Shown in pieces: positions 1 through 22,676 of a DNA stretch of 64,000 nucleotides (position 1 is the first letter of the stretch; every line of letters starts with the position of its first letter). The position numbers were made by a program, and so were the translations under genes. Source of the stretch: Escherichia coli (GTDB lineage: Bacteria > Pseudomonadota > Gammaproteobacteria > Enterobacterales > Enterobacteriaceae); assembly GCF_044324875.1 (NCBI RefSeq), contig NZ_CP172185.1; one strand, given 5' to 3'. Under the pieces are notes generated by a model, which was not told the DNA's origin, searched no databases, and saw only the letters and a list, made by a program, of their open reading frames with translations.

Positions 1-358
1 CTAATGTATTAACAATAAAAGAGGTGAGATCCTGCATACGCGCGGCAACCTTTTCGGCACGTGATGCCCATTCAGGCTCATCCGCCAGATACGTTGGGTA
101 ACTTTTTACGGCATAGGTACAGGAGCCAGCCGGTGAAATAATGGGATCGTCGTTATCCTCCAGTGCGGCGATCAGATTTTTCATCCCTGGAATCGCTTCT
201 TTGATATAACCACTATTGATCGCAGGCTGACCGCAGCATCCCTGTTTCTCCGGGAAATTTACGCGACAGCCGAGTTTTTCCAGTAGCAGCACGGAGTCTC
301 GTGCCATTCTTGATTTCAGGGCGTCACCAATACAGGTGACAAAGAAATTGACATTCAC
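1..358 (-). CDS. ykgE: Cys-rich LutA-like oxidoreductase subunit YkgE, 5' portion only (GTG start at 358; gene runs off the window start)
   Basis: Minus-strand translation VNVNFFVTCIGDALKSRMARDSVLLLEKLGCRVNFPEKQGCCGQP... matches YkgE N-terminus; not in ORF track because it is truncated by the window edge. Confidence 0.8.
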   Translation of the reverse strand, partial: MNVNFFVTCIGDALKSRMARDSVLLLEKLGCRVNFPEKQGCCGQPAINSGYIKEAIPGMKNLIAALEDNDDPIISPAGSCTYAVKSYPTYLADEPEWASRAEKVAARMQDLTSFIVNTL

Positions 359-875
359 AACTAATACTCCATTACTTCATGCCCATTTATGCCCGATGGT
401 TCCCCCCTTCCGGGGGATCAATCATCAATAAATATGGCGTTCTTTTTTAATTGGCTAGCAACATACCACCCCTCATTTGTATGACAAATGATAATCTTTG
501 ATCCAAACTTCAAATGCAATAACTAATTTTATTTCTTTCGGCATCGCTCACATTTTATAGGGAAATCGACGATCATTTTTGGCATAAGAAATCCATTTAA
601 AAAGGCTACATCCCTTATACCTATTCAGTGCTACTTATTCAGGGGTTATTGAGATATACACTGATGGTGTACAAACAAAATCACCAACAATAATTACGTA
701 TCAAGTAATAATCGGCATTTTATTTAATTGAAGCAATTTAGTTTGTATCTTTTATTTAATTACTAAGCCAGACCACTTCAAAAAAATATATAAAAAACTT
801 GGAAATAGAAATAGTTGAAAGGCTCACAACTCCCGGAATGCGGATTATCTTTGCCCTGATTTCTGGCGGTTTTAT

Positions 876-1730
876 TCAGGGTGCAAGCTGTCTGACCCTT
901 TCCCGATATTCTCCCGGGGTACAACCAAACTCGCGAACAAACGCCTTGTGAAAAGATGATTCACTGGCATAGCCTACTGACTCAGCGATCACCACAACAG
1001 GGAGCGTTTCCCGGGAAAACATCTGGGCCGCTATTTGTAGACGCAACTTTGTTAATACAGCCAGCGGCGTGGTTCCGGAAACATCACGGAAAAGCTGGGC
1101 AAAACTTGCCCGGGACATGTGGGCGATGCTGGCCAGCGATTCGACGGTCCAGGCGTGTCCTGGCATTTCCAGCATTTGCTGTATTACCGCACCAAGACGT
1201 GGATGCAGAAGCAAACTGAGAATGTTTTTCTCTGTATTAACCTGTGCAATCCACTCACGCACCGCGAGGATAAAGAATGTAGCGCAGATCTGGCTACACA
1301 GTGCATCCACTCCCGGCATTGCCGATCTGGATTCCTGTTGTAAAAACGGGATCGCCTCCCTCAGCCAGTTATATTCCACGCTATGGTTCACTGGTGCTAC
1401 AAACAGCGTTTCCGGCAAAGACGTTAAAAAATAACGCGCCGAATGTTGCAGCCGAAGAGTGCCACAGACAATATAGGTCGATTCATTATCGACATGACTC
1501 AGGCGATGAGCTGAATTTTGTGGTAGCAGGACCACATTTCCCGGGCGTAATGTAAAAATCTCTCCCGTCGGCATTTCCAGCTTCGCCGCTCCTTGCGTTA
1601 ACGCATGCCAACGAATAACCGACAATTCCCCGGCACCATGTGGAAGTTGCCAGTCACTTCCTAACACGCAATTCTTATCGATCGTTCCTTGTGGAGCGTT
1701 AAGCATCAACAAACGGCTAAGAGCATCCAT
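876..1730 (-). CDS. rclR: AraC-family redox-sensing regulator RclR (284 aa from MDALSRLL; the track ORF extends 17 codons further upstream)
   Basis: ORF 876..1781; C-terminal AraC HTH; divergent from rclA. Confidence 0.85.
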   Translation of the reverse strand: MDALSRLLMLNAPQGTIDKNCVLGSDWQLPHGAGELSVIRWHALTQGAAKLEMPTGEIFTLRPGNVVLLPQNSAHRLSHVDNESTYIVCGTLRLQHSARYFLTSLPETLFVAPVNHSVEYNWLREAIPFLQQESRSAMPGVDALCSQICATFFILAVREWIAQVNTEKNILSLLLHPRLGAVIQQMLEMPGHAWTVESLASIAHMSRASFAQLFRDVSGTTPLAVLTKLRLQIAAQMFSRETLPVVVIAESVGYASESSFHKAFVREFGCTPGEYRERVRQLAP

Positions 1731-1956
1731 ATCAGACTCCTGAGTGGTTTTTTGATTACAAACACCAACAATCTTAGTCAATAATTAATCTAATACCATC
1801 AAATAGTTAATCATGATTTTTGTTTTGTGATTCTGATTAAGAAAAAGAAAATACCAGACGATAAGACAAAATATCAAGCGTTGTGAAGAAATGTTATTTG
1901 CTCTTTTGCGTCTATAGTCATGATGTCAAATGAACGCGTTTCGACAGGAAATCATC

Positions 1957-3282
1957 ATGAATAAATATCAGGCAGTTATTATTGGTTTTGGCAAGGCTGG
2001 AAAAACATTAGCCGTCACGCTGGCAAAAGCAGGTTGGCGTGTGGCTCTCATCGAACAATCAAATGCAATGTATGGCGGGACCTGTATTAATATCGGCTGC
2101 ATCCCAACCAAAACATTGGTTCATGACGCACAGCAGCACACAGATTTTGTCCGTGCCATACAGCGTAAAAATGAAGTGGTTAATTTTTTACGTAATAAGA
2201 ATTTTCATAATCTTGCGGATATGCCCAATATCGACGTGATCGACGGCCAGGCGGAGTTTATCAATAATCATAGCCTGCGTGTTCATCGGCCTGAGGGAAA
2301 TCTGGAAATTCATGGCGAGAAAATTTTTATTAATACCGGTGCACAAACCGTGGTTCCGCCAATTCCTGGAATTACCACCACGCCAGGAGTATATGACAGC
2401 ACCGGATTACTTAATCTAAAAGAATTGCCTGGGCATTTAGGTATTTTGGGCGGCGGATATATTGGCGTTGAGTTCGCCTCTATGTTCGCTAATTTTGGCA
2501 GCAAGGTAACCATTTTAGAAGCAGCTTCGCTGTTTTTGCCTCGGGAAGATCGGGATATTGCTGATAATATCGCGACGATTTTACGCGATCAGGGCGTCGA
2601 TATAATCCTCAATGCCCATGTGGAGCGAATCAGTCACCATGAAAATCAAGTGCAAGTGCATAGCGAGCACGCCCAACTGGCGGTGGATGCACTGTTAATA
2701 GCTTCCGGTCGTCAACCGGCTACCGCTTCGTTACATCCAGAAAATGCCGGTATCGCAGTAAACGAGCGCGGGGCAATTGTCGTTGACAAGCTATTACATA
2801 CCACCGCAGACAATATTTGGGCGATGGGAGATGTTACCGGCGGGCTGCAATTTACTTATATTTCACTGGATGATTACCGCATTGTGCGTGATGAGTTGCT
2901 GGGAGAAGGCAGACGTAGTACTGATGATCGGAAAAATGTGCCTTATTCCGTATTCATGACACCGCCACTGTCCCGGGTTGGTATGACAGAAGAACAGGCC
3001 AGAGAGAGTGGTGCTGATATTCAGGTGGTGACATTGCCTGTAGCTGCAATTCCGCGTGCCAGAGTGATGAACGATACCCGTGGGGTATTAAAAGCGATTG
3101 TTGATAATAAAACCCAACGTATATTAGGGGCATCACTGCTGTGTGTTGACTCCCACGAGATGATCAATATAGTGAAAATGGTGATGGATGCCGGGCTGCC
3201 TTATAGCATATTACGCGATCAGATATTTACTCATCCGTCGATGAGCGAATCACTCAATGATCTATTTTCATTAGTCAAATAA
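1957..3282 (+). CDS. rclA: Pyridine nucleotide-disulfide oxidoreductase RclA (441 aa from MNKYQAVIIGFGKAG)
   Basis: FAD-binding GxGxxG at N-terminus, CxxxxC redox motif (GTCINIGCIPTK), dimerisation domain. Confidence 0.9.
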   Translation: MNKYQAVIIGFGKAGKTLAVTLAKAGWRVALIEQSNAMYGGTCINIGCIPTKTLVHDAQQHTDFVRAIQRKNEVVNFLRNKNFHNLADMPNIDVIDGQAEFINNHSLRVHRPEGNLEIHGEKIFINTGAQTVVPPIPGITTTPGVYDSTGLLNLKELPGHLGILGGGYIGVEFASMFANFGSKVTILEAASLFLPREDRDIADNIATILRDQGVDIILNAHVERISHHENQVQVHSEHAQLAVDALLIASGRQPATASLHPENAGIAVNERGAIVVDKLLHTTADNIWAMGDVTGGLQFTYISLDDYRIVRDELLGEGRRSTDDRKNVPYSVFMTPPLSRVGMTEEQARESGADIQVVTLPVAAIPRARVMNDTRGVLKAIVDNKTQRILGASLLCVDSHEMINIVKMVMDAGLPYSILRDQIFTHPSMSESLNDLFSLVK

Positions 3283-3390
3283 ACTCAAAATCAGACGCCA
3301 GAACAAATATTCTGGCGTCTCAGAGAAAAGAATCTTATTAATTCCCTGTTACTTTATAACTTCTTAATCACTTCATTGATGGTATTTTAT

Positions 3391-3627
3391 ATGTTTAAAA
3401 AATCTGTTTTATTTGCAACACTATTATCTGGCGTTATGGCATTTTCCACCAATGCAGATGATAAAATAATTCTGAAACATATCAGCGTCTCGTCAGTATC
3501 AGCATCACCGACAGTTCTTGAGGATGCCATTGCTGATATAGCCAGAAAATATAATGCTTCATCCTGGAAAGTCACATCGATGCGAATTGATAATAATTCA
3601 ACCGCAACAGCAGTATTGTATAAATAA
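3391..3627 (+). CDS. rclB: Small periplasmic DUF1471-type protein RclB (78 aa, signal peptide)
   Basis: ORF 3376..3627, start trimmed to MFKKSVLFATLLSGVMAFS; follows rclA. Confidence 0.8.
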   Translation: MFKKSVLFATLLSGVMAFSTNADDKIILKHISVSSVSASPTVLEDAIADIARKYNASSWKVTSMRIDNNSTATAVLYK

Positions 3628-3638
3628 GGATGTTCACA

Positions 3639-4232
3639 ATGGAAAAATACCTGCACCTGTTAAGTCGGGGAGATAAAATTGGCCTGACATTGATTCGTCT
3701 GAGTATTGCGATTGTTTTTATGTGGATTGGGTTATTAAAGTTTGTCCCTTACGAGGCAGACAGCATTACACCATTCGTCGCAAACAGTCCACTAATGTCG
3801 TTCTTTTATGAACACCCGGAAGACTATAAACAGTATCTGACTCACGAAGGCGAATACAAACCAGAAGCAAGGGCATGGCAAACGGCCAATAATACCTATG
3901 GTTTTTCCAACGGTCTTGGCGTCGTGGAGGTGATTATTGCTCTGCTGGTTTTGGCTAATCCTGTCAATCGCTGGTTAGGTTTATTGGGAGGGCTGATGGC
4001 ATTTACCACACCGTTGGTAACACTCTCATTTTTAATCACCACCCCGGAGGCATGGGTACCCGCATTGGGTGACGCTCATCATGGTTTCCCTTATTTATCC
4101 GGTGCTGGTCGCCTGGTATTGAAAGATACTCTGATGCTGGCAGGTGCTGTCATGATAATGGCAGATTCGGCGCGGGAAATTCTTAAACAACGCAGTAATG
4201 AATCCAGTTCAACGTTAAAAACTGAATATTGA
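3639..4232 (+). CDS. rclC: Inner-membrane protein RclC (197 aa)
   Basis: ORF 3630..4232, start trimmed to MEKYLHLL; hydrophobic segments. Confidence 0.8.
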   Translation: MEKYLHLLSRGDKIGLTLIRLSIAIVFMWIGLLKFVPYEADSITPFVANSPLMSFFYEHPEDYKQYLTHEGEYKPEARAWQTANNTYGFSNGLGVVEVIIALLVLANPVNRWLGLLGGLMAFTTPLVTLSFLITTPEAWVPALGDAHHGFPYLSGAGRLVLKDTLMLAGAVMIMADSAREILKQRSNESSSTLKTEY

Positions 4233-4265
4233 TAATCCGAACACTGTCTGTTGTTCACTTTTGCA

Positions 4266-4303
4266 GGCGTCAGGCCCCCTTTCTGATGATGAAGCCTGAC
4301 GCC
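4266..4303. terminator. Bidirectional hairpin between convergent rclC and the aldo-keto reductase gene
   Basis: Inverted repeat ggcgtcaggc ... gcctgacgcc. Confidence 0.5.
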
Positions 4304-4391
4304 ATATTACCGGAGATATGACAGAGTGAAGATCAATATCACTCCCCTGTTAAAAGATTCTTGTCGTCTCAGGTAAAATACATGATTAATA

Positions 4392-5276
4392 TCAATCATG
4401 TATTTTTACAGCAAGACAACCACGAACAAATTCAGGATTAAAATGTTTTACCGACTCCCCAACATAACCCAAATCAAGCGAACTAATTTGTGCCATTTCT
4501 TTCTCTGTCAGTGAGAAATCCCAGATAGCAAAATTTTCTTCGATACGCTGTTGATGTGTCGATTTCGGAATAACGACCACTCCCCGTTGAATATTCCAAC
4601 GCAGAATGACCTGAGAAATCGATTTTTGATGGGCATCTGCAATACTCTGAAGCAGATTATTTTCAAAGGGTTTATGTCGTCCACCACCTAACGGAGCCCA
4701 TGCTTCAGGCTGCACGTTATAATACTTCATGGTTGCCAGCGCCTCTGGTTGGGCAAAATAGGGATGCAACTCGACCTGGTTGACCATCGGTTTAACTCTT
4801 ACCGTTTCACAAAAGTTCGCCAGAACATGAGGATAGAAATTGGAAACCCCAATCGCTTTTAATTTGCCCTCTTCATAGGCATCTTCGAGTGCACGCCACG
4901 CACTGAAATAATCGCGCATGGCCTGGTGCAATAAAAAGAGATCGAAGTATTCTAGCCCCGATTTTTTTAATGATGCTTCAATACCTGCTGCTGCAATATC
5001 CTGATTCAACATATCCTGCACCCACAATTTAGACGTTATAAATAACTCTTCTCGGGTACATAAACCTTCAGATATGGCTTCACGAACGGCTTCACCGACG
5101 GCATCTTCATTACCGTATACCGCTGCAGTGTCGATGAGTCGATAACCCGTGCGGATAGCATTCAACACTGACTGTTTGCACACGTCTTTATCGGTAACCT
5201 GAAAAACACCAAATCCCATCATCGGCATTTTCAGATTGTTACTTAATACGGAAAATTCCACTGTCAGTCCCTCCAT
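4392..5276 (-). CDS. Aldo-keto reductase (294 aa; start uncertain)
   Basis: AKR signatures GFGVFQ, LIDTAAVYGNE, IGVSNF, VLRWNIQRGVVVIPKS; paralogous to the 11306..12157 product. Confidence 0.75.
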   Translation of the reverse strand: MEGLTVEFSVLSNNLKMPMMGFGVFQVTDKDVCKQSVLNAIRTGYRLIDTAAVYGNEDAVGEAVREAISEGLCTREELFITSKLWVQDMLNQDIAAAGIEASLKKSGLEYFDLFLLHQAMRDYFSAWRALEDAYEEGKLKAIGVSNFYPHVLANFCETVRVKPMVNQVELHPYFAQPEALATMKYYNVQPEAWAPLGGGRHKPFENNLLQSIADAHQKSISQVILRWNIQRGVVVIPKSTHQQRIEENFAIWDFSLTEKEMAQISSLDLGYVGESVKHFNPEFVRGCLAVKIHD

Positions 5277-5508
5277 TAGGTATGAACAATGAGTCTACGT
5301 TAAAACGTAACCTCAAATTAGTATGTGGATTTTGATATCACTTATGCAAAAAATTCATTAATAATGTAGGACTGAAACCTCTCTATTTTTGGGGCAATGA
5401 AGCAGACGCTATCAGTGCTTTTGCCTTGGGACTTGCTATTTTTGATACACTTAGGGCCCAGGACATAACGAAAATGTGCGATATGACAAAGAATTAACGG
5501 AGAATGTG

Positions 5509-6366
5509 ATGATCAGGCAGAAGATTCTACAGCAGCTCCTGGAGTGGATTGAGTGCAATCTTGAGCACCCTATTTCAATCGAAGATATCGCACAGAAATC
5601 TGGCTACAGCAGGCGCAACATCCAGCTTCTGTTCCGAAATTTCATGCATGTGCCTTTAGGAGAATACATTCGCAAACGAAGGCTTTGTCGTGCCGCCATT
5701 CTTGTCCGACTCACCGCGAAATCTATGCTTGATATTGCACTCTCTTTGCATTTTGACTCACAGCAGTCATTCAGCCGCGAATTTAAAAAGTTATTCGGCT
5801 GCTCTCCCCGTGAATACCGCCACCGTGATTATTGGAATCTCGCAAATATCTTCCCTTCTTTTTTAATACGTCAACAGCAAAAGACGGAGTGTAGATTAGT
5901 CAACTTTCCTGAGACACCTATTTTTGGCAATTCATTTAAATATGATATTGAAGTGTCGAATAAATCACCGGATGAAGAAGTCAAACTGTGACGTCATCAT
6001 TTAGCCAGATGTATGAAGAATTTTAAGACGGATATCTATTTCGTCTCCACGTTCGAACCGTCAACAAAATCGGTCGATTTGCTCACAGTTGAAACTTTTG
6101 CCGGTACGGTATGCAAACAAACCGATTCAGAGATGTCGAAAGAGTGGACAATTAACCGAGGACTGTATGCCTCTTTCCGCTATGAAGGTGAGTGGGAGCA
6201 CTACCCTGAATGGGCGCGAAACCTCTATCTGATGGAATTACCCGCCAGGGGGTTAGCCAGAGTGAACGGCAGTGATATTGAGCGGTTTTATTACAATGAA
6301 GATTTCGTAGAAAAGGATAGCAATGATGTTGTTTGCGAAATTTTTATCCCCGTTCGTCCGGTTTAG
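5509..6366 (+). pseudogene. ykgA: Rob-like AraC/GyrI-domain regulator YkgA with a single in-frame TGA at 5989..5991 (would be 285 aa if read through)
   Basis: Track ORFs 5476..5991 and 6013..6366 are in the same frame and separated only by one TGA; GGAGA ribosome-binding site before ATG 5509; GyrI-like domain spans the stop. Confidence 0.6.
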
Positions 6367-6420
6367 TTGTCGCTATATCTAAATGAAAATATAACGAGAC
6401 TACTGTCAGGCAATTCAATA

Positions 6421-6453
6421 AATAATGGCGTTGAAGATGTCAACGCCATTATT
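6421..6453. terminator. Hairpin downstream of eaeH
   Basis: aataatggcgttgaagatgtcaacgccattatt perfect inverted repeat. Confidence 0.5.
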
Positions 6454-6486
6454 GTTTATTAGAATGTTACTTTCATATTCTCAATA

Positions 6487-9400
6487 TTATTTCATCGCCT
6501 CCTCGCCCTTTGCCGTATCGGCATCCACCGCGGTAATGGTCACCGTCACTGGCTTCATTTCGTACCCGCCATACGTCAGGGCGTTAAATGTAAACGTATA
6601 GACACCTGGCTTGTTGGTACTAAATGTACGCGTGATTTTTCCGCTCACGAAATGGTCATTTTTCGACGGCAGGAATTGATAATCCTTCTCCGTCACTCCT
6701 TCCGGCGTCTGAATGTCGACCCACACATTCCCCCCAACAGGGTTATTTGCCGAGAACAGGGTCACCTCCAGCTTCGCAGTCGATTTCCCATCCGCCACCA
6801 GCGATTGCACATCAGATGATGCGGCGAGCACCGCGTTTTTATCATCCGCGACGAATTTAGATTCAGCAGTTTTCGTCGATTCCTGACCGTTGGCCTGTTC
6901 CACTTTCGCCGTGAGTGTATATTTCGCTGCGACAGTGGTCGTGGCGGTGAAAATAGCCTGCCCTTGCTCATTAGTTTTCGCCGTCCCATCGGGATCCAGA
7001 GCTAAATTTGCCGGGCTGGCAGTCAGCGTCACCTCGCTATCTTTCAACAGGTTGTTATTGGCATCAGTCACCGTAACTTTATACGTCTGTTTGGCTTTGC
7101 CATCCGCCAGTGCATAGTTGCCAATCACCTCAATACCGGAGACGGTTGCGGTCGCCTTATCGGCCACAAACGTTATAGTCTGCGCATCCGAAGGCTGGTC
7201 ATTTCCTGCCGACGCCGTGATCTCATAGGTTCCGGCAGTCACGGAAACCACCTGCAACTCTGCTTTCCCCTCATCGTTGGCTTTCACCCAGACATTATCG
7301 CCAGTAAGCGGCTTGACACCTCGGGGCAGATTAAAGGTCACCAGAGTGCCTGGAACAGGGTTACCGTTTTTATCCTCAACGGTCGCCGTCAGCGTAAAGG
7401 CATCTTTGCCGTTTGCCACTTTTTGAGCAGCGGCGTCTACCTCCAGGCTCGCCTGACCGGTGCTGGCATCCGCGTTGAATTTCACCGTGACCGTCTTCTG
7501 AGAGTTTTTCACCGCGGCCTCGATCTCAAGTTCCCCGGCAACCGTTGACATCAGCTCAATGTCAGCTTTACCTGCCGTATTGGTTGTTACCGTATTCCCC
7601 GTCTTGCTGGTCACACCCTGCGGTAAAGTCAGCGTAACTTCTTGCCCCTGCAACGGGTTACCATAGCTGTCCACGACGGTCAGGGTTATCTGGTTAGCAG
7701 ACTGTCCATTTGCCAGTTGGTTATTCACCTTCACCGCCATATCACTGATCACTGCCCGGGAAGCGTCGCCTGCAACATTCAGCACCAGTGGCTGAGCAAC
7801 GGCATTTAGGCCGTTCACGCGTGGCATCACAGACAACTGACCCGCGGCAGATCCCAGCGTTAAGGTCGACACGTAGACCCCATTACCTTTCTCTGTCCAG
7901 TTTCCTGCTGAAGGACGCTCACTCCCCGTGCTGGCGGCACCGCTAAACACTGGTGCATCTGGCTTCAGCCCGGTGACCGGGTTCCCGTACGCATCCTTCA
8001 CGGTGAAGGTGAGTTCCGTCGTCGTTTTAACCGTTGGAGTCTTATTGTCCGCAACAAGCGTAGAGTTAGCTGATGACATCTCTCCAGCGATGACCGTCAA
8101 CTGCGCGGCTTCGGTGGCTGCTGGCTGGCCGTTGAAGAGAGGCATGACGCGAAGCTCGCCCGTCTTTCCGCCTGTAGTCAACGTAGCAACATAGGAACCG
8201 TCACCTTTTTCGGTCCAACTGGAAACGGTCGCCCCTTCAGAGGCGGTCCCCGTCAAACTTGCCGACAACGAAAGACCACTGATAGCGTTGCCATGTGCAT
8301 CTTTTGCAATAAGCGTCACGGTTGTGCTTTCGCCGGCTTTTACGTGATCTTCTGCGACGGAGACTTTCGACTGGTTTGAAGATAACGCATCAGCCACCAC
8401 GGTTACTTTTGCCGCATTTGCTGCCGCATCCTGTCCATTTAGCTTCGGCATAACTTCTAATTCACCCGCCGTAGAGCCGAGAGTAATCTGCGCAGTCCAC
8501 GTCCCATCACCATTATTTGTCCAGCCCGATGCCGTAGAACCTACAGCAGCGGCACCCGCTAATGACGGCGCTTCCGGCGTGAGGCTGGTCACTGGGTTGT
8601 CATAGGCATCTTTTGCCGTCCAGATTGCCGTAACTGTACCGCCAACCACCGGTTTATCAGGATTCAGTGTGATGGACGAATGTGCTGCATCAAGCGGCCC
8701 GGCAACAAACTTCAGCGTTTGTTGTAATGTGCCCAGCTGATACTGCTCGCTGAAAGCACGCACAACAACGTTTCCGGCACGGGTCGAAGAAACCGTGGCG
8801 CTGTAAACGCCTGGTTTTATTTCCGAAATGGCACCAACGGTTACACCATTAGTGTCTTGCGGAACAAATCGCAAGCGGCTGGCTTCTCCCGTCACCGGAT
8901 TACCCTCGGAGTCCACCGCAGTCAACGTCAACGTATAGGCTTGCTGACCATCAGCAACCACGTCACCTGACGGCTCGTTAGCGCTCAGGGTGGAGTTTGC
9001 CACATCCATCATCGTGGCCCGCAGTTCTGCAGTGACGGTTTTGCTCATGCCATCAACGCTAACAGTAATCGTTGCCTCACCTGACTGCGTTCCGGTAGTA
9101 AAGACAGACTGATACACCCCTGCTTCAGTTTCGGTGAACTCACCCAGTGTTGGCTTTGCCTGTGATTTAGTGGCCTTCAGGGAACGAGTCACAATATTTC
9201 CAGCCGGTTTGAAAGTTAGTTCAGTCTTGATCTGATCTTTCATGCCCGTGACTGGCTGGCCCTCGGCGTCGCGCAGAGACAGCACCAGCGGCTTTTGCTC
9301 ATTACCGTTAGCAAGCATTTGAATACGGCTCTGACCGTCAAGCGTTAACGCCGTACGATCGGCGCTCATACCAGCTCCGGTAATAACCACTTCTGTCTGC

Positions 9401-10740
9401 ACACGTTTCGAGGCATTGCCTTTGTTATCGTAGGCAACTGCTGAAATCGCATAATAATTGTCTTTGCCTGGACGGTAAGCCGGGAGCGTCACTTGCCACT
9501 GATTGCCCTGTCCCGTAATTTTTCCGCCAGCGGCCAGCAAAGACGGCGCTTCCCATTGCACATTTTTCAGACCGTGAGTTGCTTTGCTGACCACAAGCCC
9601 CAGGGAAACCGTCTGGCCGCCCTTGCCTTCAATACGCTCAGGCAGAGCAATACGAATCACTTCAGATTTGCGGTACTCAAGAACGATGTTGTTATTACGC
9701 TCAACCAGGTCATAGCGGCTGCCTGCCAGCATTCGACGCTCGCGAATACTGTCTGTATCGAGTTGTTTTTCCAGAGGTTCGCCAATCCGATAATTAACTT
9801 CCAGGCCAAAGCGAGTGTCATTCTCACCACTCTTGCCCTGCTTATGCCCAGCACTCAGGGTCAGAAGAGGCACTGGCGTGTAATTCACTTCAGCGGTAAT
9901 CGCATGTGGATCTTTCTGGCGTTTATCTTTACCAAACAGCCCGACTTCATCGCCATAATACTGTTCATACATCAGGCTTGCGCCAAGCTGCGGCCAGGCA
10001 GGTAAATAGCCCTCAGCACGAATATCCCAGCCATTCGCCGGGCGTTCCTGATAATCCTCAACATCCGGCGATTTTTTCCAGCCAGAAGCCCGGATATAAC
10101 CATTGGCGCTCAGTTTCAAATAATCACGCCAGTATTCCGCACCAACACCAATGCGGGTATGACTACGGGATAAATCATGGTCGATAAAGGTGTTCACCCC
10201 CGCCATCCAGTCATTTCCTGAAAAATGACGCCAGCCAAAACCAATATTTGACTGAGTACGATCGTCGGTACGATGTATTGCCCCCTGAGTGAACAACATA
10301 TTTGTCGGCGTATCATAAATCGGATAAAGCATTTCCAGCGAAGAGTCCTTCAGCGAGAATTCTTTATCGACATTCAGTTTGACGCGCGCAGTACCATATT
10401 TCCCGAGCCACTCCTGTATTTCCTGGTTAGCTTTAGCTGTGGCCATTCCGGTAATAAAGTTACGTGTCGCATCGCTATCTGGCTGACTGCTTAAAAATGT
10501 CCCGGCATTTGCGGCAAACGACGCGACATTTTTCTCCACATTATTATCAGCAGCTACTGTGGTATTTTCCATGCTCAAACGTGGCTGAACTGCATGCTGC
10601 GCGCGTGCTGCCATTACTGGGGTAAAGGTGACAGCGAGTGGGAAAAGAACCTGAACAGAGATATTTGCCCACGCCACGCAGCGGGCCAGAACTGAATAAC
10701 GAAATCGTGGTTGTTTATGACCTGTTTTATAACGTGACAT
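6487..10740 (-). CDS. eaeH: Intimin/invasin-family outer-membrane adhesin, full length (1417 aa)
   Basis: N-terminal signal peptide, beta-barrel region, long run of Ig-like repeats rich in TLT/VTA motifs; one uninterrupted ORF. Confidence 0.85.
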   Translation of the reverse strand: MSRYKTGHKQPRFRYSVLARCVAWANISVQVLFPLAVTFTPVMAARAQHAVQPRLSMENTTVAADNNVEKNVASFAANAGTFLSSQPDSDATRNFITGMATAKANQEIQEWLGKYGTARVKLNVDKEFSLKDSSLEMLYPIYDTPTNMLFTQGAIHRTDDRTQSNIGFGWRHFSGNDWMAGVNTFIDHDLSRSHTRIGVGAEYWRDYLKLSANGYIRASGWKKSPDVEDYQERPANGWDIRAEGYLPAWPQLGASLMYEQYYGDEVGLFGKDKRQKDPHAITAEVNYTPVPLLTLSAGHKQGKSGENDTRFGLEVNYRIGEPLEKQLDTDSIRERRMLAGSRYDLVERNNNIVLEYRKSEVIRIALPERIEGKGGQTVSLGLVVSKATHGLKNVQWEAPSLLAAGGKITGQGNQWQVTLPAYRPGKDNYYAISAVAYDNKGNASKRVQTEVVITGAGMSADRTALTLDGQSRIQMLANGNEQKPLVLSLRDAEGQPVTGMKDQIKTELTFKPAGNIVTRSLKATKSQAKPTLGEFTETEAGVYQSVFTTGTQSGEATITVSVDGMSKTVTAELRATMMDVANSTLSANEPSGDVVADGQQAYTLTLTAVDSEGNPVTGEASRLRFVPQDTNGVTVGAISEIKPGVYSATVSSTRAGNVVVRAFSEQYQLGTLQQTLKFVAGPLDAAHSSITLNPDKPVVGGTVTAIWTAKDAYDNPVTSLTPEAPSLAGAAAVGSTASGWTNNGDGTWTAQITLGSTAGELEVMPKLNGQDAAANAAKVTVVADALSSNQSKVSVAEDHVKAGESTTVTLIAKDAHGNAISGLSLSASLTGTASEGATVSSWTEKGDGSYVATLTTGGKTGELRVMPLFNGQPAATEAAQLTVIAGEMSSANSTLVADNKTPTVKTTTELTFTVKDAYGNPVTGLKPDAPVFSGAASTGSERPSAGNWTEKGNGVYVSTLTLGSAAGQLSVMPRVNGLNAVAQPLVLNVAGDASRAVISDMAVKVNNQLANGQSANQITLTVVDSYGNPLQGQEVTLTLPQGVTSKTGNTVTTNTAGKADIELMSTVAGELEIEAAVKNSQKTVTVKFNADASTGQASLEVDAAAQKVANGKDAFTLTATVEDKNGNPVPGTLVTFNLPRGVKPLTGDNVWVKANDEGKAELQVVSVTAGTYEITASAGNDQPSDAQTITFVADKATATVSGIEVIGNYALADGKAKQTYKVTVTDANNNLLKDSEVTLTASPANLALDPDGTAKTNEQGQAIFTATTTVAAKYTLTAKVEQANGQESTKTAESKFVADDKNAVLAASSDVQSLVADGKSTAKLEVTLFSANNPVGGNVWVDIQTPEGVTEKDYQFLPSKNDHFVSGKITRTFSTNKPGVYTFTFNALTYGGYEMKPVTVTITAVDADTAKGEEAMK

Positions 10741-11290
10741 TGAGATAATTTCCTGATGAACGAATTAACGAACATAGGCAGACACAAATAATGGCGTCTG
10801 CTTGTCAGAAAAACCGGGGATTTCCCGGTTTCCTTTTCCGCAGAAAAGGAAATACCTTTATGTAAGAAAGTACACCGCCACCTAATATATCCAGTGTCTG
10901 TAGCCACTCATCAGGTGGTTGGGCGCGGGATTATATTTTTATTTATGGGTAAAAATTTAGCTTTTTGTGCAAGTTATTAAATAGATACTTAAGTTATATT
11001 TCTTACTCTGCGGGCAGTGAATAATTCATTATTAAGAGTGAATAATAATGACCTGTCTTTAATTAATCGCTATTGGGAATACGTCGAAGTAGGTATATAC
11101 ACCAGGATAAACCAATATATTTTTTATGGATATTCATTTTTCTTCATCAGACTGTGAATTGCAGGGATATCGAACTTGCACGACTCATCGCAACACTCAA
11201 GCAGATTTATGAATTTCGTTCATAACCCCTGACAAATCCTGCCGTCTAATCGAGCTCTTCCCTTTACGTTATGCTTCTCATGAACGATAA

Positions 11291-13581
<2,291 letters not shown>

Positions 13582-13591
13582 CTACCGCTTT

Positions 13592-14347
13592 TTAACGCGT
13601 TTTTTCGCTGCTTTCCACTACCGGGGGATTTTTCCTCAGTGACTCTCCCTGAAGGACCACTCGGTGTGAGTTATGTACCAGTCTGTCCAGGATGGCATCT
13701 GCTGTTGTTGGGTTCTCCATCAGACCATGCCATTTATCTACCGGGAACTGGCTTACCACTATCGTGCTGCTTTGTCCGTAACGATCCTCTATGAGCTCCA
13801 GAAGGTCATTACACTGGGCGTTACTTAACTGTTCCAGCCCCAGATCGTCCAGGATTAGAACCTGTATTTTTTGCAACTGTTTCAGATATTTCAGCCAGCT
13901 GCCATCAACACGTCCCTGAGCCAGTTGTTCCAGTAATCGCCCGGTTCTACAGTACCGGACGCTGTGTTTCTGTCGACATGCCTGTTCGCCCAGCGCATTG
14001 GCTATCCAGCTCTTGCCACATCCTGTCGGACCGGTTATCAGCAGGTTTTTCCTGTGGGTTATGTAGTGGCCGTTCAGCAGTTCTCTCATCTGTTCAGCCC
14101 GCAGACCTCTTGAGGCCGGATAGCGCAGCCCTTCCGGTGTTGCCTGGTATTTCAGGCCGGCATTTTTTCTCAACCGTGCCACACGGCTGTTTTCCCTGCT
14201 CAGAAGCTCGTCATCAACCAGCAGCGTCAGCCTTTCCTCGAACGACAGTTCGTCGTAGGTCTGAGGCGTTTCCCGCTGCCGTATCAGGCTCCCGGCCATC
14301 GCCGGGAGTTTCAGTTGGGTCAGTTTGTTTAACAGGTTATCACTCAT
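13592..14347 (-). CDS. istB: IS21-family helper ATPase IstB (251 aa from MSDNLL)
   Basis: Walker A GPTGCGKS, DnaC-like; start overlaps istA stop. Confidence 0.8.
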   Translation of the reverse strand: MSDNLLNKLTQLKLPAMAGSLIRQRETPQTYDELSFEERLTLLVDDELLSRENSRVARLRKNAGLKYQATPEGLRYPASRGLRAEQMRELLNGHYITHRKNLLITGPTGCGKSWIANALGEQACRQKHSVRYCRTGRLLEQLAQGRVDGSWLKYLKQLQKIQVLILDDLGLEQLSNAQCNDLLELIEDRYGQSSTIVVSQFPVDKWHGLMENPTTADAILDRLVHNSHRVVLQGESLRKNPPVVESSEKTR

Positions 14348-14363
14348 ACTGTTGTTCCTTCTG

Positions 14364-15899
14364 TCAGTGGTAGTAGCCCGGACCACGCAGGTTTTCATGC
14401 TCTGAAGCATATGCCGGATGTTGTTCGCCCTGGCGGGATAATGGAAGCTCCAGGTTCTCCCGATGGTGACGCAGCAGATTGTCGATAAAGCGTCTGTCAG
14501 GGGCGTTATAGTGCAGGGCAACGTAACAGGCCTTTTCCAGCCGTTCCGGGCCGTATTTTTTCTGAAGTGCCAGCAGCCCCAGAACTGCACGATAAGCCAG
14601 TTCCGGATGGGGTTTTGCCTTCAGCATGGATTCAACCACCCGGCCTGTGGACGGGCCCGTACGTTTTCCCTGCTCGATCAGGCGTTCCGGTGTCCATGTC
14701 CCGTGCTGCCGGTGGCGCTCTGGCATGTGAAGCGGATTGGTTGTGTGTTTATATTCATGTGTGCTGCGCGGATGTTGCGCCACACACTGCCCCTTGTGCC
14801 AGAGCTGTACCACCGACTGCCCCGCCTTCAGTGACAGACGCTGACCGACCAGTTCGTGTGGAACGGAGTACCAGTGACGGGCATATTCAACGTGGTAGTC
14901 AGGGCCAACCTTCACAGCTTTGTATTCCGTGTATTCATAAGGTGCCAGAGGCAGCGGAGAGAGTGCTGGCGCATCCAGTATGCGGAAGCGTTCTGCACGG
15001 GTTTGATTGCCGTACCCCTTCATTGGCCGGTTATTCATGTCTGTCAGTAACTCCCTAAGGCGCGCATTCAGCGCCCTGAGCGTGTGGAAGGTTTCATTAC
15101 GGATGCGGGCAAGAAGCCATCGTTCAACGATGAGGACGCCGTTTTCTGCTTTTGGTTTATCTTTAGGTTTGCGTGGTCGGGCCGGGATGATAACCGTGCC
15201 ATAGTGCTCAGCCAGTGCCTGATAACTGTCGTTGATGACAGGCTCATATCGATCGGCCTTTTTCACTGCGCTTCTGAGGTTATCGGGGATGAGCAGCTTC
15301 GGTACGCCGCCCAGGAAGGTCAGGCAACGGCTGTGGGCATTTAACCATGACATCATGTCCTGACCTTCGCACGCTTCAACGTAGGTATAGTTGGACGCCC
15401 CCATTACGGCCACGAAGATTGCCACGCGGCGTATCTCACCGGTGTCCGGATTAATAACAGGAACCGTAGGACCACAGAAGTCGATAAAAAGCTTTTCGCC
15501 GGCACGATGCTCCTGGCGCATGGAGAGACGTCGCGTTTTTTTCCACTCCCGGTAGCAACGGCAGAAGTGCGAGTATCCCATCGCTTTGTTACCCGCCTGT
15601 GCCTTGTATTCCATCCACAACAGTTGCCGCGTCACACCTGGTTTTCTCATTTCCGTATCGAAGTACAACATGTCAGGCATTACAAGCTCTGATGCAAAGG
15701 TGTCTTTGGGCGGAAAAATGAGTTTCTCCAGCGTGTCATGGGATATATCAGCAGGTAATGGCCATGACAGAGAAGAGGCTTTGAAGCGGGCAAGAACCTC
15801 AAAAACGGTTGAGGCGCTGATGTGTAACGTCAGTCCGATACAACGGTTAGTCAGCTTCTTGTCGAACTTGAGCTGAAGGATCTTAAAACAGGTTTCCAT
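14364..15899 (-). CDS. istA: IS21-family transposase IstA (start uncertain; track ORF extends to 16010)
   Basis: N-terminal HTH and DDE transposase core; gene order typical of IS21 family. Confidence 0.75.
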   Translation of the reverse strand: METCFKILQLKFDKKLTNRCIGLTLHISASTVFEVLARFKASSLSWPLPADISHDTLEKLIFPPKDTFASELVMPDMLYFDTEMRKPGVTRQLLWMEYKAQAGNKAMGYSHFCRCYREWKKTRRLSMRQEHRAGEKLFIDFCGPTVPVINPDTGEIRRVAIFVAVMGASNYTYVEACEGQDMMSWLNAHSRCLTFLGGVPKLLIPDNLRSAVKKADRYEPVINDSYQALAEHYGTVIIPARPRKPKDKPKAENGVLIVERWLLARIRNETFHTLRALNARLRELLTDMNNRPMKGYGNQTRAERFRILDAPALSPLPLAPYEYTEYKAVKVGPDYHVEYARHWYSVPHELVGQRLSLKAGQSVVQLWHKGQCVAQHPRSTHEYKHTTNPLHMPERHRQHGTWTPERLIEQGKRTGPSTGRVVESMLKAKPHPELAYRAVLGLLALQKKYGPERLEKACYVALHYNAPDRRFIDNLLRHHRENLELPLSRQGEQHPAYASEHENLRGPGYYH

Positions 15900-16013
15900 A
15901 GTGCTCCTGGATTTTCTCTTTCTGGACATTGACGTCTCCACTGGTTTAAACACGGCAATGGAGACTGTGGTGAAAAGAGTTAATTCCCGGAGTGACTGGC
16001 AGGATGCCAATCA

Positions 16014-16859
<846 letters not shown>

Positions 16860-16941
16860 CTAAACTTTCAGGAGATTTATTATGAATAAACGTATCCTCA
16901 CGATTGCGCCATTCTTCTTACCGATATTCTGACACACATCA

Positions 16942-17868
16942 TTAACTTTCTATTTTTACTCTTTTCTCCACCATAAAATCAATAAAAGCACGAACTTTAG
17001 AGGGCATTCTCACCCGTGATGAAACATATATATAAAATCCAGGAAATGAAACGGCCCAATCCTCAAGAATCGGCTGTAACTTGCCCGCATTGATATGTTC
17101 AGCGATTGCAAAATCCAGATGTTGAATGATACCCGTTCCATTCAGCGCCATTCGTATCATGCTTTCGTCATCATTAGAAATATACTTACCTGAAACCTCT
17201 ATTTCGAACTCTTCATTACCCCCCACAACATTAGAAAACTCCCATGCAGAGAGTGCACCGCTACTTTTATGCCGCAACCGAAGGCAATTATGGTTACTCA
17301 GTTCCTGAGGCGTTTCAGGAATACCGTGTTCTTTTAAATAATCTGGCGATGCCACAGTAACCAGTTTAATAAGCGGAGAAACAGGAACGGCAGTCATATG
17401 CTCATCCAGTCCTTGCTCAAGACGTATGCCCACATCACAGCCGTCCGCAATAATGTTAGATAAACCGTCATCCATAATGAGTTCTATCTTTGTTTTGGGG
17501 TAACGAGTAAGAAACTCGCCAATATGAGGCTCAACAAGCATCCGTGCTGCAACACGGGAGGAATTTATTCTCAACAGGCCTGTAGGTTCAAGTTGGGTAT
17601 CACCAACATCTTTCAAAGCATCATCAATTTGCCCCAAAGCCGACACCAGCACTTCATACAGACGCTGTCCTTCCTCAGTAAGCGACATATTGCGGGTCGT
17701 ACGGTATATCAGCTTGGTGTTAAGACGTTCCTCAAGAGATTTTAAATTCTGGGACAATGCGGCCCGCGTAATACCCATTTCAGAAGCGGCTCTGGAAAAA
17801 CTGCCGGCACGAACAATAAGCGCAAACCAGGCAAGAGAAGGCAAAATTGAAGGCTCTATTTTCATCAT
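16942..17868 (-). CDS. LysR-family transcriptional regulator (start uncertain)
   Basis: N-terminal LysR HTH (FSRAASEMGITRAALSQNLKSLEERL), C-terminal substrate-binding domain; divergent from hydrolase gene. Confidence 0.75.
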   Translation of the reverse strand: MMKIEPSILPSLAWFALIVRAGSFSRAASEMGITRAALSQNLKSLEERLNTKLIYRTTRNMSLTEEGQRLYEVLVSALGQIDDALKDVGDTQLEPTGLLRINSSRVAARMLVEPHIGEFLTRYPKTKIELIMDDGLSNIIADGCDVGIRLEQGLDEHMTAVPVSPLIKLVTVASPDYLKEHGIPETPQELSNHNCLRLRHKSSGALSAWEFSNVVGGNEEFEIEVSGKYISNDDESMIRMALNGTGIIQHLDFAIAEHINAGKLQPILEDWAVSFPGFYIYVSSRVRMPSKVRAFIDFMVEKRVKIES

Positions 17869-18024
17869 TGTAAACCTTAACTTAACACTGTGATAGATAT
17901 TAGACCATTGATGATAACCAATACAAGTCATACTATTACGCCGTTCTCGATATGAACACGAATGCCAGTTGCGGATAATAGAAATGATATTTAAATCTGT
18001 TTAGGCAAATCCCCGGAGCTTGAA

Positions 18025-18945
18025 ATGAAAACTGTTTCGATAAAACATACTTACTGGGATATAGCTGCTGATATCTATTTCCCTGACGATTTTAATAGTG
18101 AAAAAAAGTATCCTGCCATTATCAGCGCCCATCCAATTGGAAGCTGCAAAGAACAGACATCGGGTAGTGTGTATGGTGCCGCCCTGGCAAAAGCTGGCTT
18201 TATCGTCATTGCTTTTGATGCCAGTTTTCAGGGAAGCAGCGGTGGAGAACCGCGTTATCTGGAAGATCCAACAATGCGAGTAAAAGACTTCAGCATTGTC
18301 GTTGATTACCTTACCACCTTACCTTACGTTGATGCCGGGCGTATTGGTGTACTGGGTATTTGTGGTGGAGGTGGATATGCCATTAATGCCGCAATGACAG
18401 AACGTCGAATTAAAGCTATTGGTACTGTCACGGGTGCAAACTACGGGCGTCTTATGCGTGAGGGATTTACAGCGTTTAATCCTATCGGAGCACTCGAAGC
18501 GATGGCGCAACAAAGAACAGACGAAGCTAACGGCGCAAAACTTCGCGTAGATGATTTACTCCCCTCTTCTCCGGATGCAGCTCTTGAAGCGGGATTAACA
18601 GAAATAGACCTTTTTGAAGCCACAGAATATTATCGTTCGCCACGAGGCTGTGCACCTAATGGGGTAAATCGTTCGCTATTCTCACATCAGACTGTTGCCG
18701 TGGGTTGGGATGCATTTCATCTTGCAGAAGTCCTGTTAACTCAACCAATAATGGTTGTGGTGGGCGATAGAGTGGGCGCATTTGGTGCCTACCGTGACGG
18801 CTGCGAAATTATTGGCCGCGCTGCCTCAAAACATAAAGAGCTGGTCGTGGTTGAAGGTTATTCACATTACGACCTGTATGATAAGCCAGAACCTGTGAAA
18901 CAGGCACTCGAAAAATTAATTCCTTTTTATAAAACACATTTGTAA
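18025..18945 (+). CDS. Alpha/beta-hydrolase fold protein, cytoplasmic (306 aa)
   Basis: Nucleophile elbow GICGGGG and C-terminal GYSHYDLYD; paralog of the 38418..39575 product. Confidence 0.65.
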   Translation: MKTVSIKHTYWDIAADIYFPDDFNSEKKYPAIISAHPIGSCKEQTSGSVYGAALAKAGFIVIAFDASFQGSSGGEPRYLEDPTMRVKDFSIVVDYLTTLPYVDAGRIGVLGICGGGGYAINAAMTERRIKAIGTVTGANYGRLMREGFTAFNPIGALEAMAQQRTDEANGAKLRVDDLLPSSPDAALEAGLTEIDLFEATEYYRSPRGCAPNGVNRSLFSHQTVAVGWDAFHLAEVLLTQPIMVVVGDRVGAFGAYRDGCEIIGRAASKHKELVVVEGYSHYDLYDKPEPVKQALEKLIPFYKTHL

Positions 18946-22172: not shown

Positions 22173-22676
22173 TTATTGATAGTGTTTTATGTTCAGATAA
22201 TGCCCGATGACTTTGTCATGCAGCTCCACCGATTTTGAGAACGACAGCGACTTCCGTCCCAGCCGTGCCAGGTGCTGCCTCAGATTCAGGTTATGCCGCT
22301 CAATTCGCTGCGTATATCGCTTGCTGATTACGTGCAGCTTTCCCTTCAGGCGGGATTCATACAGTGGCCAGCCATCCGTCATCCATATCACCACGTCAAA
22401 GGGTGACAGCAGGCTCATAAGACGCCCCAGCGTCGCCATAGTGCGTTCACCGAATACGTGCGCAACAACCGTCTTCCGGAGCCTGTCATACGCGTAAAAC
22501 AGCCAGCGCTGGCGCGATTTAGCCCCGACATAGCCCCACTGTTCGTCCATTTCCGCGCAGACGATGACGTCACTGCCCGGCTGTATGCGCGAGGTTACCG
22601 ACTGCGGCCTGAGTTTTTTAAGTGACGTAAAATCGTGTTGAGGCCAACGCCCATAATGCGGGCAGTTGCCCGGCAT
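22173..22676 (-). CDS. insB: IS1 transposase InsB frame (made as InsAB by -1 frameshift)
   Basis: 167-aa ORF overlapping insA 3' end. Confidence 0.85.

Follow-up and report, generated by a model that had tools for sequence, protein, structure and literature searches.

An In-Frame TGA Codon Interrupts ykgA, a Gene for a Rob-Like AraC-Family Regulator, in an Escherichia coli Strain

Organization of the ykgA Locus

The window analyzed here (the whole 64,000-nucleotide stretch of Escherichia coli contig NZ_CP172185.1, read as one strand) encodes, in order, rclA-rclB-rclC, an aldo-keto reductase gene on the minus strand, ykgA on the plus strand, and fdeC/eaeH on the minus strand. The order around ykgA is the same in four annotated genomes, among them a K-12-like strain whose homolog is a C-terminally truncated pseudogene abutting IS3; in K-12 itself, ykgA has been described as adjoining IS3 and eaeH (PMC11148124). 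By its position in the locus and its near-identity to annotated YkgA, the interrupted gene is identified as ykgA. When codon 161 is restored to Arg, the repaired 285-residue protein is identical to an E. coli protein encoded on 202 contigs, and its UniRef name is "Putative transcriptional regulator ykgA." The function and targets of YkgA have been stated to be unidentified (PMC2064960).

Translation of the plus-strand frame at 5509..6366 gives 285 codons, with a sole internal stop, the TGA of codon 161 at 5989..5991, and a normal terminal stop (TAG, 6364..6366). The first-pass annotation had described two open reading frames (ORFs), 5476..5991 and 6013..6366, that share one frame, are split only by this TGA, and together make up a 285-codon gene. 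Our analysis supports this description: the starts in the ORF list lie 537 nt apart (6013 − 5476 = 179 × 3), no other stop falls between the two ORFs, and the Arg-restored protein equals the 285-residue E. coli protein and aligns with Rob over its full length. The ATG at 5509 is the start of the coding sequence (CDS) of intact orthologs in RefSeq and follows a Shine-Dalgarno sequence (Table 1); the GTG at 5476 is merely the first possible start of the open frame. A simple sigma-70 scan of the intergenic region 5277..5508 found no promoter-like site, a result that is uninformative because activator-dependent promoters often match the consensus poorly.

No Shine-Dalgarno sequence precedes the residual ORF 3' of the stop within the 21 nt 5' of its ATG at 6013 (cgtcatcatttagccagatgt), and this ORF begins 42 residues into the GyrI-like domain, so that the domain it encodes is incomplete. 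In many assemblies with upstream lesions, gene callers list this 117-codon ORF as a separate "GyrI-like domain-containing protein."

The domain assignments (Table 1) agree with the earlier view of the gene as encoding a Rob-like AraC/GyrI regulator whose stop lies inside the effector domain: an HTH_18 domain (residues 27-106) is followed by a GyrI-like domain (residues 127-283), codon 161 is 34 residues into the latter, and the alignment with Rob extends from end to end (E = 6e-39). SoxS, RamA, and MarA align with the first 106 residues. The alignment with YkgA or Rob orthologs that had been proposed as a check also yields, for the repaired protein, an exact match to an intact 285-residue YkgA. 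The HTH_18 domain lies wholly 5' of the stop and is thus fully retained; the GyrI-like domain is cut after the first 34 of its approximately 157 residues, with loss of approximately 78% of the effector domain. A complete GyrI-like domain is therefore encoded but absent from the translated product, and ykgA in this strain is a member of the Rob-like family by descent only.

Table 1. Coordinates of the features of the ykgA locus and of the nearby IS21-family insertion (window positions)
Feature	Position	Strand	Basis or details
Shine-Dalgarno sequence GGAG	5499..5502	+	read from sequence; 6 nt before ATG 5509
ykgA frame, 285 codons plus stop, interrupted at codon 161; pseudogene allele	5509..6366	+	translation, alignment
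Truncated ORF, 160 codons plus premature TGA; predicted product YkgA(1-160)	5509..5991	+	exact 160-residue protein in Logan assemblies
AraC-type double helix-turn-helix DNA-binding domain, Pfam HTH_18, residues 27-106	5587..5826	+	E = 2.2e-19
GyrI-like small-molecule-binding domain, Pfam PF06445, residues 127-283	5887..6357	+	E = 1.7e-12; model positions 2-155 of 155
Premature TGA for CGA (Arg161); mutated base T 5989	5989..5991	+	comparison with CGA genomes
Residual in-frame ORF, 117 codons from Met169, residues 169-285	6013..6366	+	ORF list
Terminator-like hairpin with T-rich tail, intact, between convergent ykgA and fdeC	6421..6453	+	14-bp stem, 5-nt loop, tail GTTTATT
istB	13592..14590	-	
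istA	14364..16010	-	
Halves of LysR-type regulator gene	16011..16817 and about 13204..13490	-	

Origin of the Stop Codon

Comparison with related genomes traces the stop to one base. The best-matching complete genome, NZ_CP076709.1, has a single difference across 1051 bp (window 5400..6450), namely C in place of T at 5989, and its intact 858-nt CDS (WP_122999566.1) is the same as the window frame except at that position. Relatives were chosen as assemblies that encode the window's exact 1417-residue FdeC; three loci were returned, all with an intact 285-residue ykgA product. GCA_044692905.1 differs from the window at one position in 8,078 bp and GCA_044681795.1 at one in 7,615 bp, in both cases at 5989, where the codon is CGA (Arg161); the third assembly has two differences in 9,254 bp, of which 5989 is one. 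Since these near-identical relatives differ essentially at 5989, the stop is a very recent single CGA-to-TGA transition that occurred on a haplotype common in its intact form. The sequence 3' of the stop shows no secondary decay relative to the CGA-bearing relatives. The window haplotype is found in its intact 285-residue form on 202 contigs and in its truncated 160-residue form on two.

With the sense codon CGA in NZ_CP076709.1 and in three near-identical assemblies, the window allele shows this mark of a pseudogene by nonsense mutation. The suggestion that orthologs might naturally be two separate genes here is refuted by their arrangement; they are overwhelmingly single genes of 285 residues, and haplotypes that otherwise match the window's read CGA at this codon. 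A conserved split arrangement (a helix-turn-helix gene plus a GyrI-like gene) was not encountered, most genomes having one gene of 285 or 283 residues, and the split forms of ykgA stem from many different lesions.

Predicted Consequences for the Product

Translation from 5509 would end after 160 residues, leaving the last 375 nt of ykgA untranslated; the predicted product would keep a complete MarA/SoxS-like double helix-turn-helix domain, the linker, and 34 residues of the effector domain. A polar effect on neighboring genes is unexpected, because no co-directional gene lies downstream and fdeC is convergent. In MarA and SoxS, an isolated domain of this type activates transcription alone; with this precedent, the 160-residue product could retain residual or constitutive activity and need not be null. 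In Rob, the C-terminal domain binds effectors and mediates a sequestration-dispersal switch, and it also keeps the Lon and ClpYQ proteases away from the N-terminal domain (PMC9178005, with reference to Griffith et al. 2009). By analogy with Rob, truncated YkgA would be effector-blind and prone to instability, which points to a loss-of-function allele; on the same analogy, instability and activity of YkgA(1-160) are equally likely. The first-pass annotation predicted a DNA-binding domain without its ligand-binding half, and the domain coordinates bear out this structure; its functional consequence is deduced from those coordinates combined with the biology of Rob. Our favored reading, held with high confidence, is that the TGA is a genuine and very recent nonsense mutation that has produced a loss-of-function pseudogene allele of an often-inactivated regulator.

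Variation of ykgA among E. coli

Among the 5,426 complete RefSeq genomes of E. coli, 5,049 match the ykgA region, 4,608 of them over at least 80% of its length; dN/dS values among ykgA alleles (0.07-0.27) indicate that the gene is normally under purifying selection. Of the complete RefSeq E. coli genomes, 3,918 have a match to the site, and none of these contains the window's exact 61-mer around the stop. As a count of TGA carriers this search was rejected, for its result means just that this one 61-mer is missing from that set, and R161* carriers exist in a wider protein collection. No GTDB species-representative genome gave an exact 40-mer match to the allele.

Many other lesions of ykgA are found elsewhere. 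They comprise nonsense mutations (E156* and a stop at codon 103), frameshifts (nt 210, 295, 309, 351, 376, 396, 413, and 430), insertions of IS3-family, IS66, and IS1 elements, and the IS3 truncation of K-12. The lesions were retrieved by means of the exact 117-residue C-terminal ORF, so their positions are biased, and some of the indels in metagenome-derived copies may be assembly errors. The event in the window is one instance of a broader trend: most E. coli conserve ykgA under purifying selection, yet it has been knocked out independently many times.

The GyrI-like half of ykgA falls into two deeply diverged allele classes, one represented by the window (5989..6366) and the other by K-12-like/phylogroup-A-like alleles. 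Between the classes, dS is approximately 0.31 in the C-terminal half versus 0.07 in the N-terminal half, with a 6-bp indel at nt 610; the bands of identity among complete genomes at ykgA, 95-99% (3,580 genomes) and 90-95% (1,461 genomes), agree with two classes. This pattern suggests an old recombination breakpoint inside ykgA.

The same nonsense change is present on a second haplotype, which carries C481T (CGA to TGA) and the same pair of 160- and 117-residue ORFs (for example, HAI4891256.1 with HAI4891257.1, and GCA_004568485.1, contig RZBW01000015.1). Its truncated product is encoded on 47 contigs, and its intact (repaired) form on at least 1000. Over 3.35 kb this haplotype matches the window at 95.3% identity, and its ykgA differs by 13 further substitutions; the two haplotypes are identical across 5836..6250. 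The G-to-R and V-to-M replacements 3' of the stop in the second R161* haplotype were considered as decay following inactivation, an explanation that fails since the same haplotype, once repaired, corresponds to a common intact allele (at least 1000 contigs). The shared R161* may have arisen by recurrent mutation or by short-tract recombination, neither of which requires selection; ykgA has just 27 sites at which a transition creates a stop, CGA to TGA at codon 161 among them.

Alternative Explanations

The first-pass annotation named a sequencing error as a possible source of the TGA, and a true genome reading CGA would account for a difference of one base and for the lack of the exact 61-mer in all 3,918 site-matching complete genomes. 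An independent read set speaks strongly against it. The exact 160-residue product is encoded on two Logan contigs, one of which, ERR1512459_75, has the same TGA and matches window positions 1..13492 and 16132..18636 (approximately 16 kb) with 100% identity. This contig is without the window's 2.6-kb IS21-family insertion, 7.5 kb from the stop, and has an intact LysR gene (297 residues); because the insertion is missing, the contig derives from another DNA sample or another state of the strain. The same T is therefore found in a short-read assembly that is structurally distinct, which rules against an error at the level of assemblies; the second Logan contig that encodes the exact product argues in the same direction, and the change at 5989 is a substitution outside any homopolymer run. 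The TGA is probably genuine and not an assembly artifact, and we consider an error extremely improbable. Comparably slight is the chance that the TGA is decoded as selenocysteine or by programmed readthrough, with full-length protein still the main product. Of the stop codons in E. coli, TGA leaks the most, with Trp the residue usually inserted upon readthrough (PMC11126739), and the frame 3' of the codon is entirely open; however, the homologous codon is CGA (Arg), never Cys or Sec, in all alleles compared. An Rfam scan of 5300..6600 at E ≤ 10 returned noise only (snoRNA and miRNA models, E ≥ 2.2), and no SECIS hairpin was found 3' of the UGA, the 65 nt around and after it (5986..6050) folding at -11.6 kcal/mol, no better than shuffled sequence (z = -0.61). 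A SECIS-like element is thus absent by both methods, as had been anticipated, and a selenocysteine or other recoding element was rejected on these results. The 3' sequence is, moreover, identical in CGA-bearing strains, so no recoding element evolved with the stop. Readthrough would be expected in at most a few percent of ribosomes, usually with insertion of Trp, and would yield traces of full-length R161W.

A further explanation accepts the mutation as real and proposes that the truncation has been selected, either because it creates an effector-independent, MarA/SoxS-like constitutive activator or because loss of YkgA is itself adaptive. R161* is found on two haplotypes of 95.3% identity, in each case derived from a common intact allele, the stop spares the entire HTH_18 domain, and MarA and SoxS are natural stand-alone versions of a domain of the HTH_18 type; if the proposal were true, YkgA(1-160) might constitutively switch on a stress or efflux regulon. 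Yet each R161* sub-lineage makes up a small minority of its haplotype (2 contigs against 202 intact, and 47 against at least 1000), and one coincidence is unremarkable among 27 transition-to-stop sites and a dozen or more independent lesions. The identity of the two haplotypes across 5836..6250 means that short-tract recombination could have carried the mutation from one to the other, and other lesions (at nt 210 and 295, for example) destroy the helix-turn-helix domain as well. In Rob, the N-terminal domain is exposed to Lon/ClpYQ once the C-terminal domain is lost (PMC9178005), which weighs against a stable activator. Selection for the truncation therefore seems unlikely, though somewhat less so than an error or a decoded TGA.

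Comparison with Related Regulators

Read as a nonsense pseudogene allele, the window's ykgA can be set beside several known systems. The nearest is ykgA of K-12 (b0300), an AraC-family pseudogene; gene and locus are the same (rclABC ... ykgA ... eaeH/fdeC), and it has likewise lost part of the GyrI-like domain. The K-12 gene is cut at approximately nt 661 (codon ~220) by an IS3-associated rearrangement in which eaeH is truncated too, whereas the window has a point nonsense mutation at codon 161, a gene of full length, and an intact fdeC. Rob (PDB 1d5y and 7vwy) has the same N-terminal double helix-turn-helix and C-terminal GyrI-like architecture, residues 5-283 of YkgA corresponding to residues 5-288 of Rob (E = 6e-39); Rob is intact and abundant, while YkgA is a diverged paralogue and is truncated in the window allele. 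The 160-residue YkgA is essentially a domain of the MarA/SoxS/RamA kind (YkgA 2-106 versus SoxS 2-106, E = 5e-27), but unlike these proteins it has an extra 54-residue tail, made up of the linker plus part of the GyrI-like fold, and it has arisen by mutation.

There is nothing mechanistically new in this allele, which is an ordinary, recent, lineage-private inactivating single-nucleotide polymorphism (SNP) in an often-lost accessory regulator. It adds another case of the repeated independent inactivation of a poorly characterized paralogue of Rob, MarA, and SoxS, and may bear on when YkgA is dispensable. In annotation, the locus is best given as a single ykgA pseudogene carrying an internal stop, and not as two genes (an "HTH domain protein" and a "GyrI-like domain protein"). 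The SNP at 5989, together with the nearby IS21 insertion, provides markers for tracking the strain lineage.

Other Features of the Window

The aldo-keto reductase gene that is divergent from ykgA (4392..5276, minus strand) is DkgA-like and intact in the window; in the K-12-like strain and related strains only a 129-nt remnant is found. The whole interval from rcl to fdeC is, in E. coli, a hotspot at which genes decay and are rearranged.

Although draft and short-read assemblies with the window haplotype are common, the lineage is seemingly missing from the complete RefSeq E. coli set, in which no genome exceeds approximately 99% identity to the window over stretches of 24-25 kb.

The IS21-family element (13493..16131) encodes istA and istB and splits a gene for a LysR-type regulator (Table 1). 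The alignment pieces of ERR1512459_75 at this site overlap by 6 bp, which suggests a 6-bp target-site duplication. As judged from the sequence comparison, interruption of the LysR gene adds another strain-specific knock-out of a regulator, 7.5 kb away from the stop in ykgA, and it took place later than that stop arose. Farther along the window, an ORF at 22173..22676 (minus strand) matches only the C-terminal part of the IS1 transposase (profile positions 75-199 of 199); by this match it is a partial or frameshifted IS1 copy, located between an oxidoreductase cluster and the ecp fimbrial operon.
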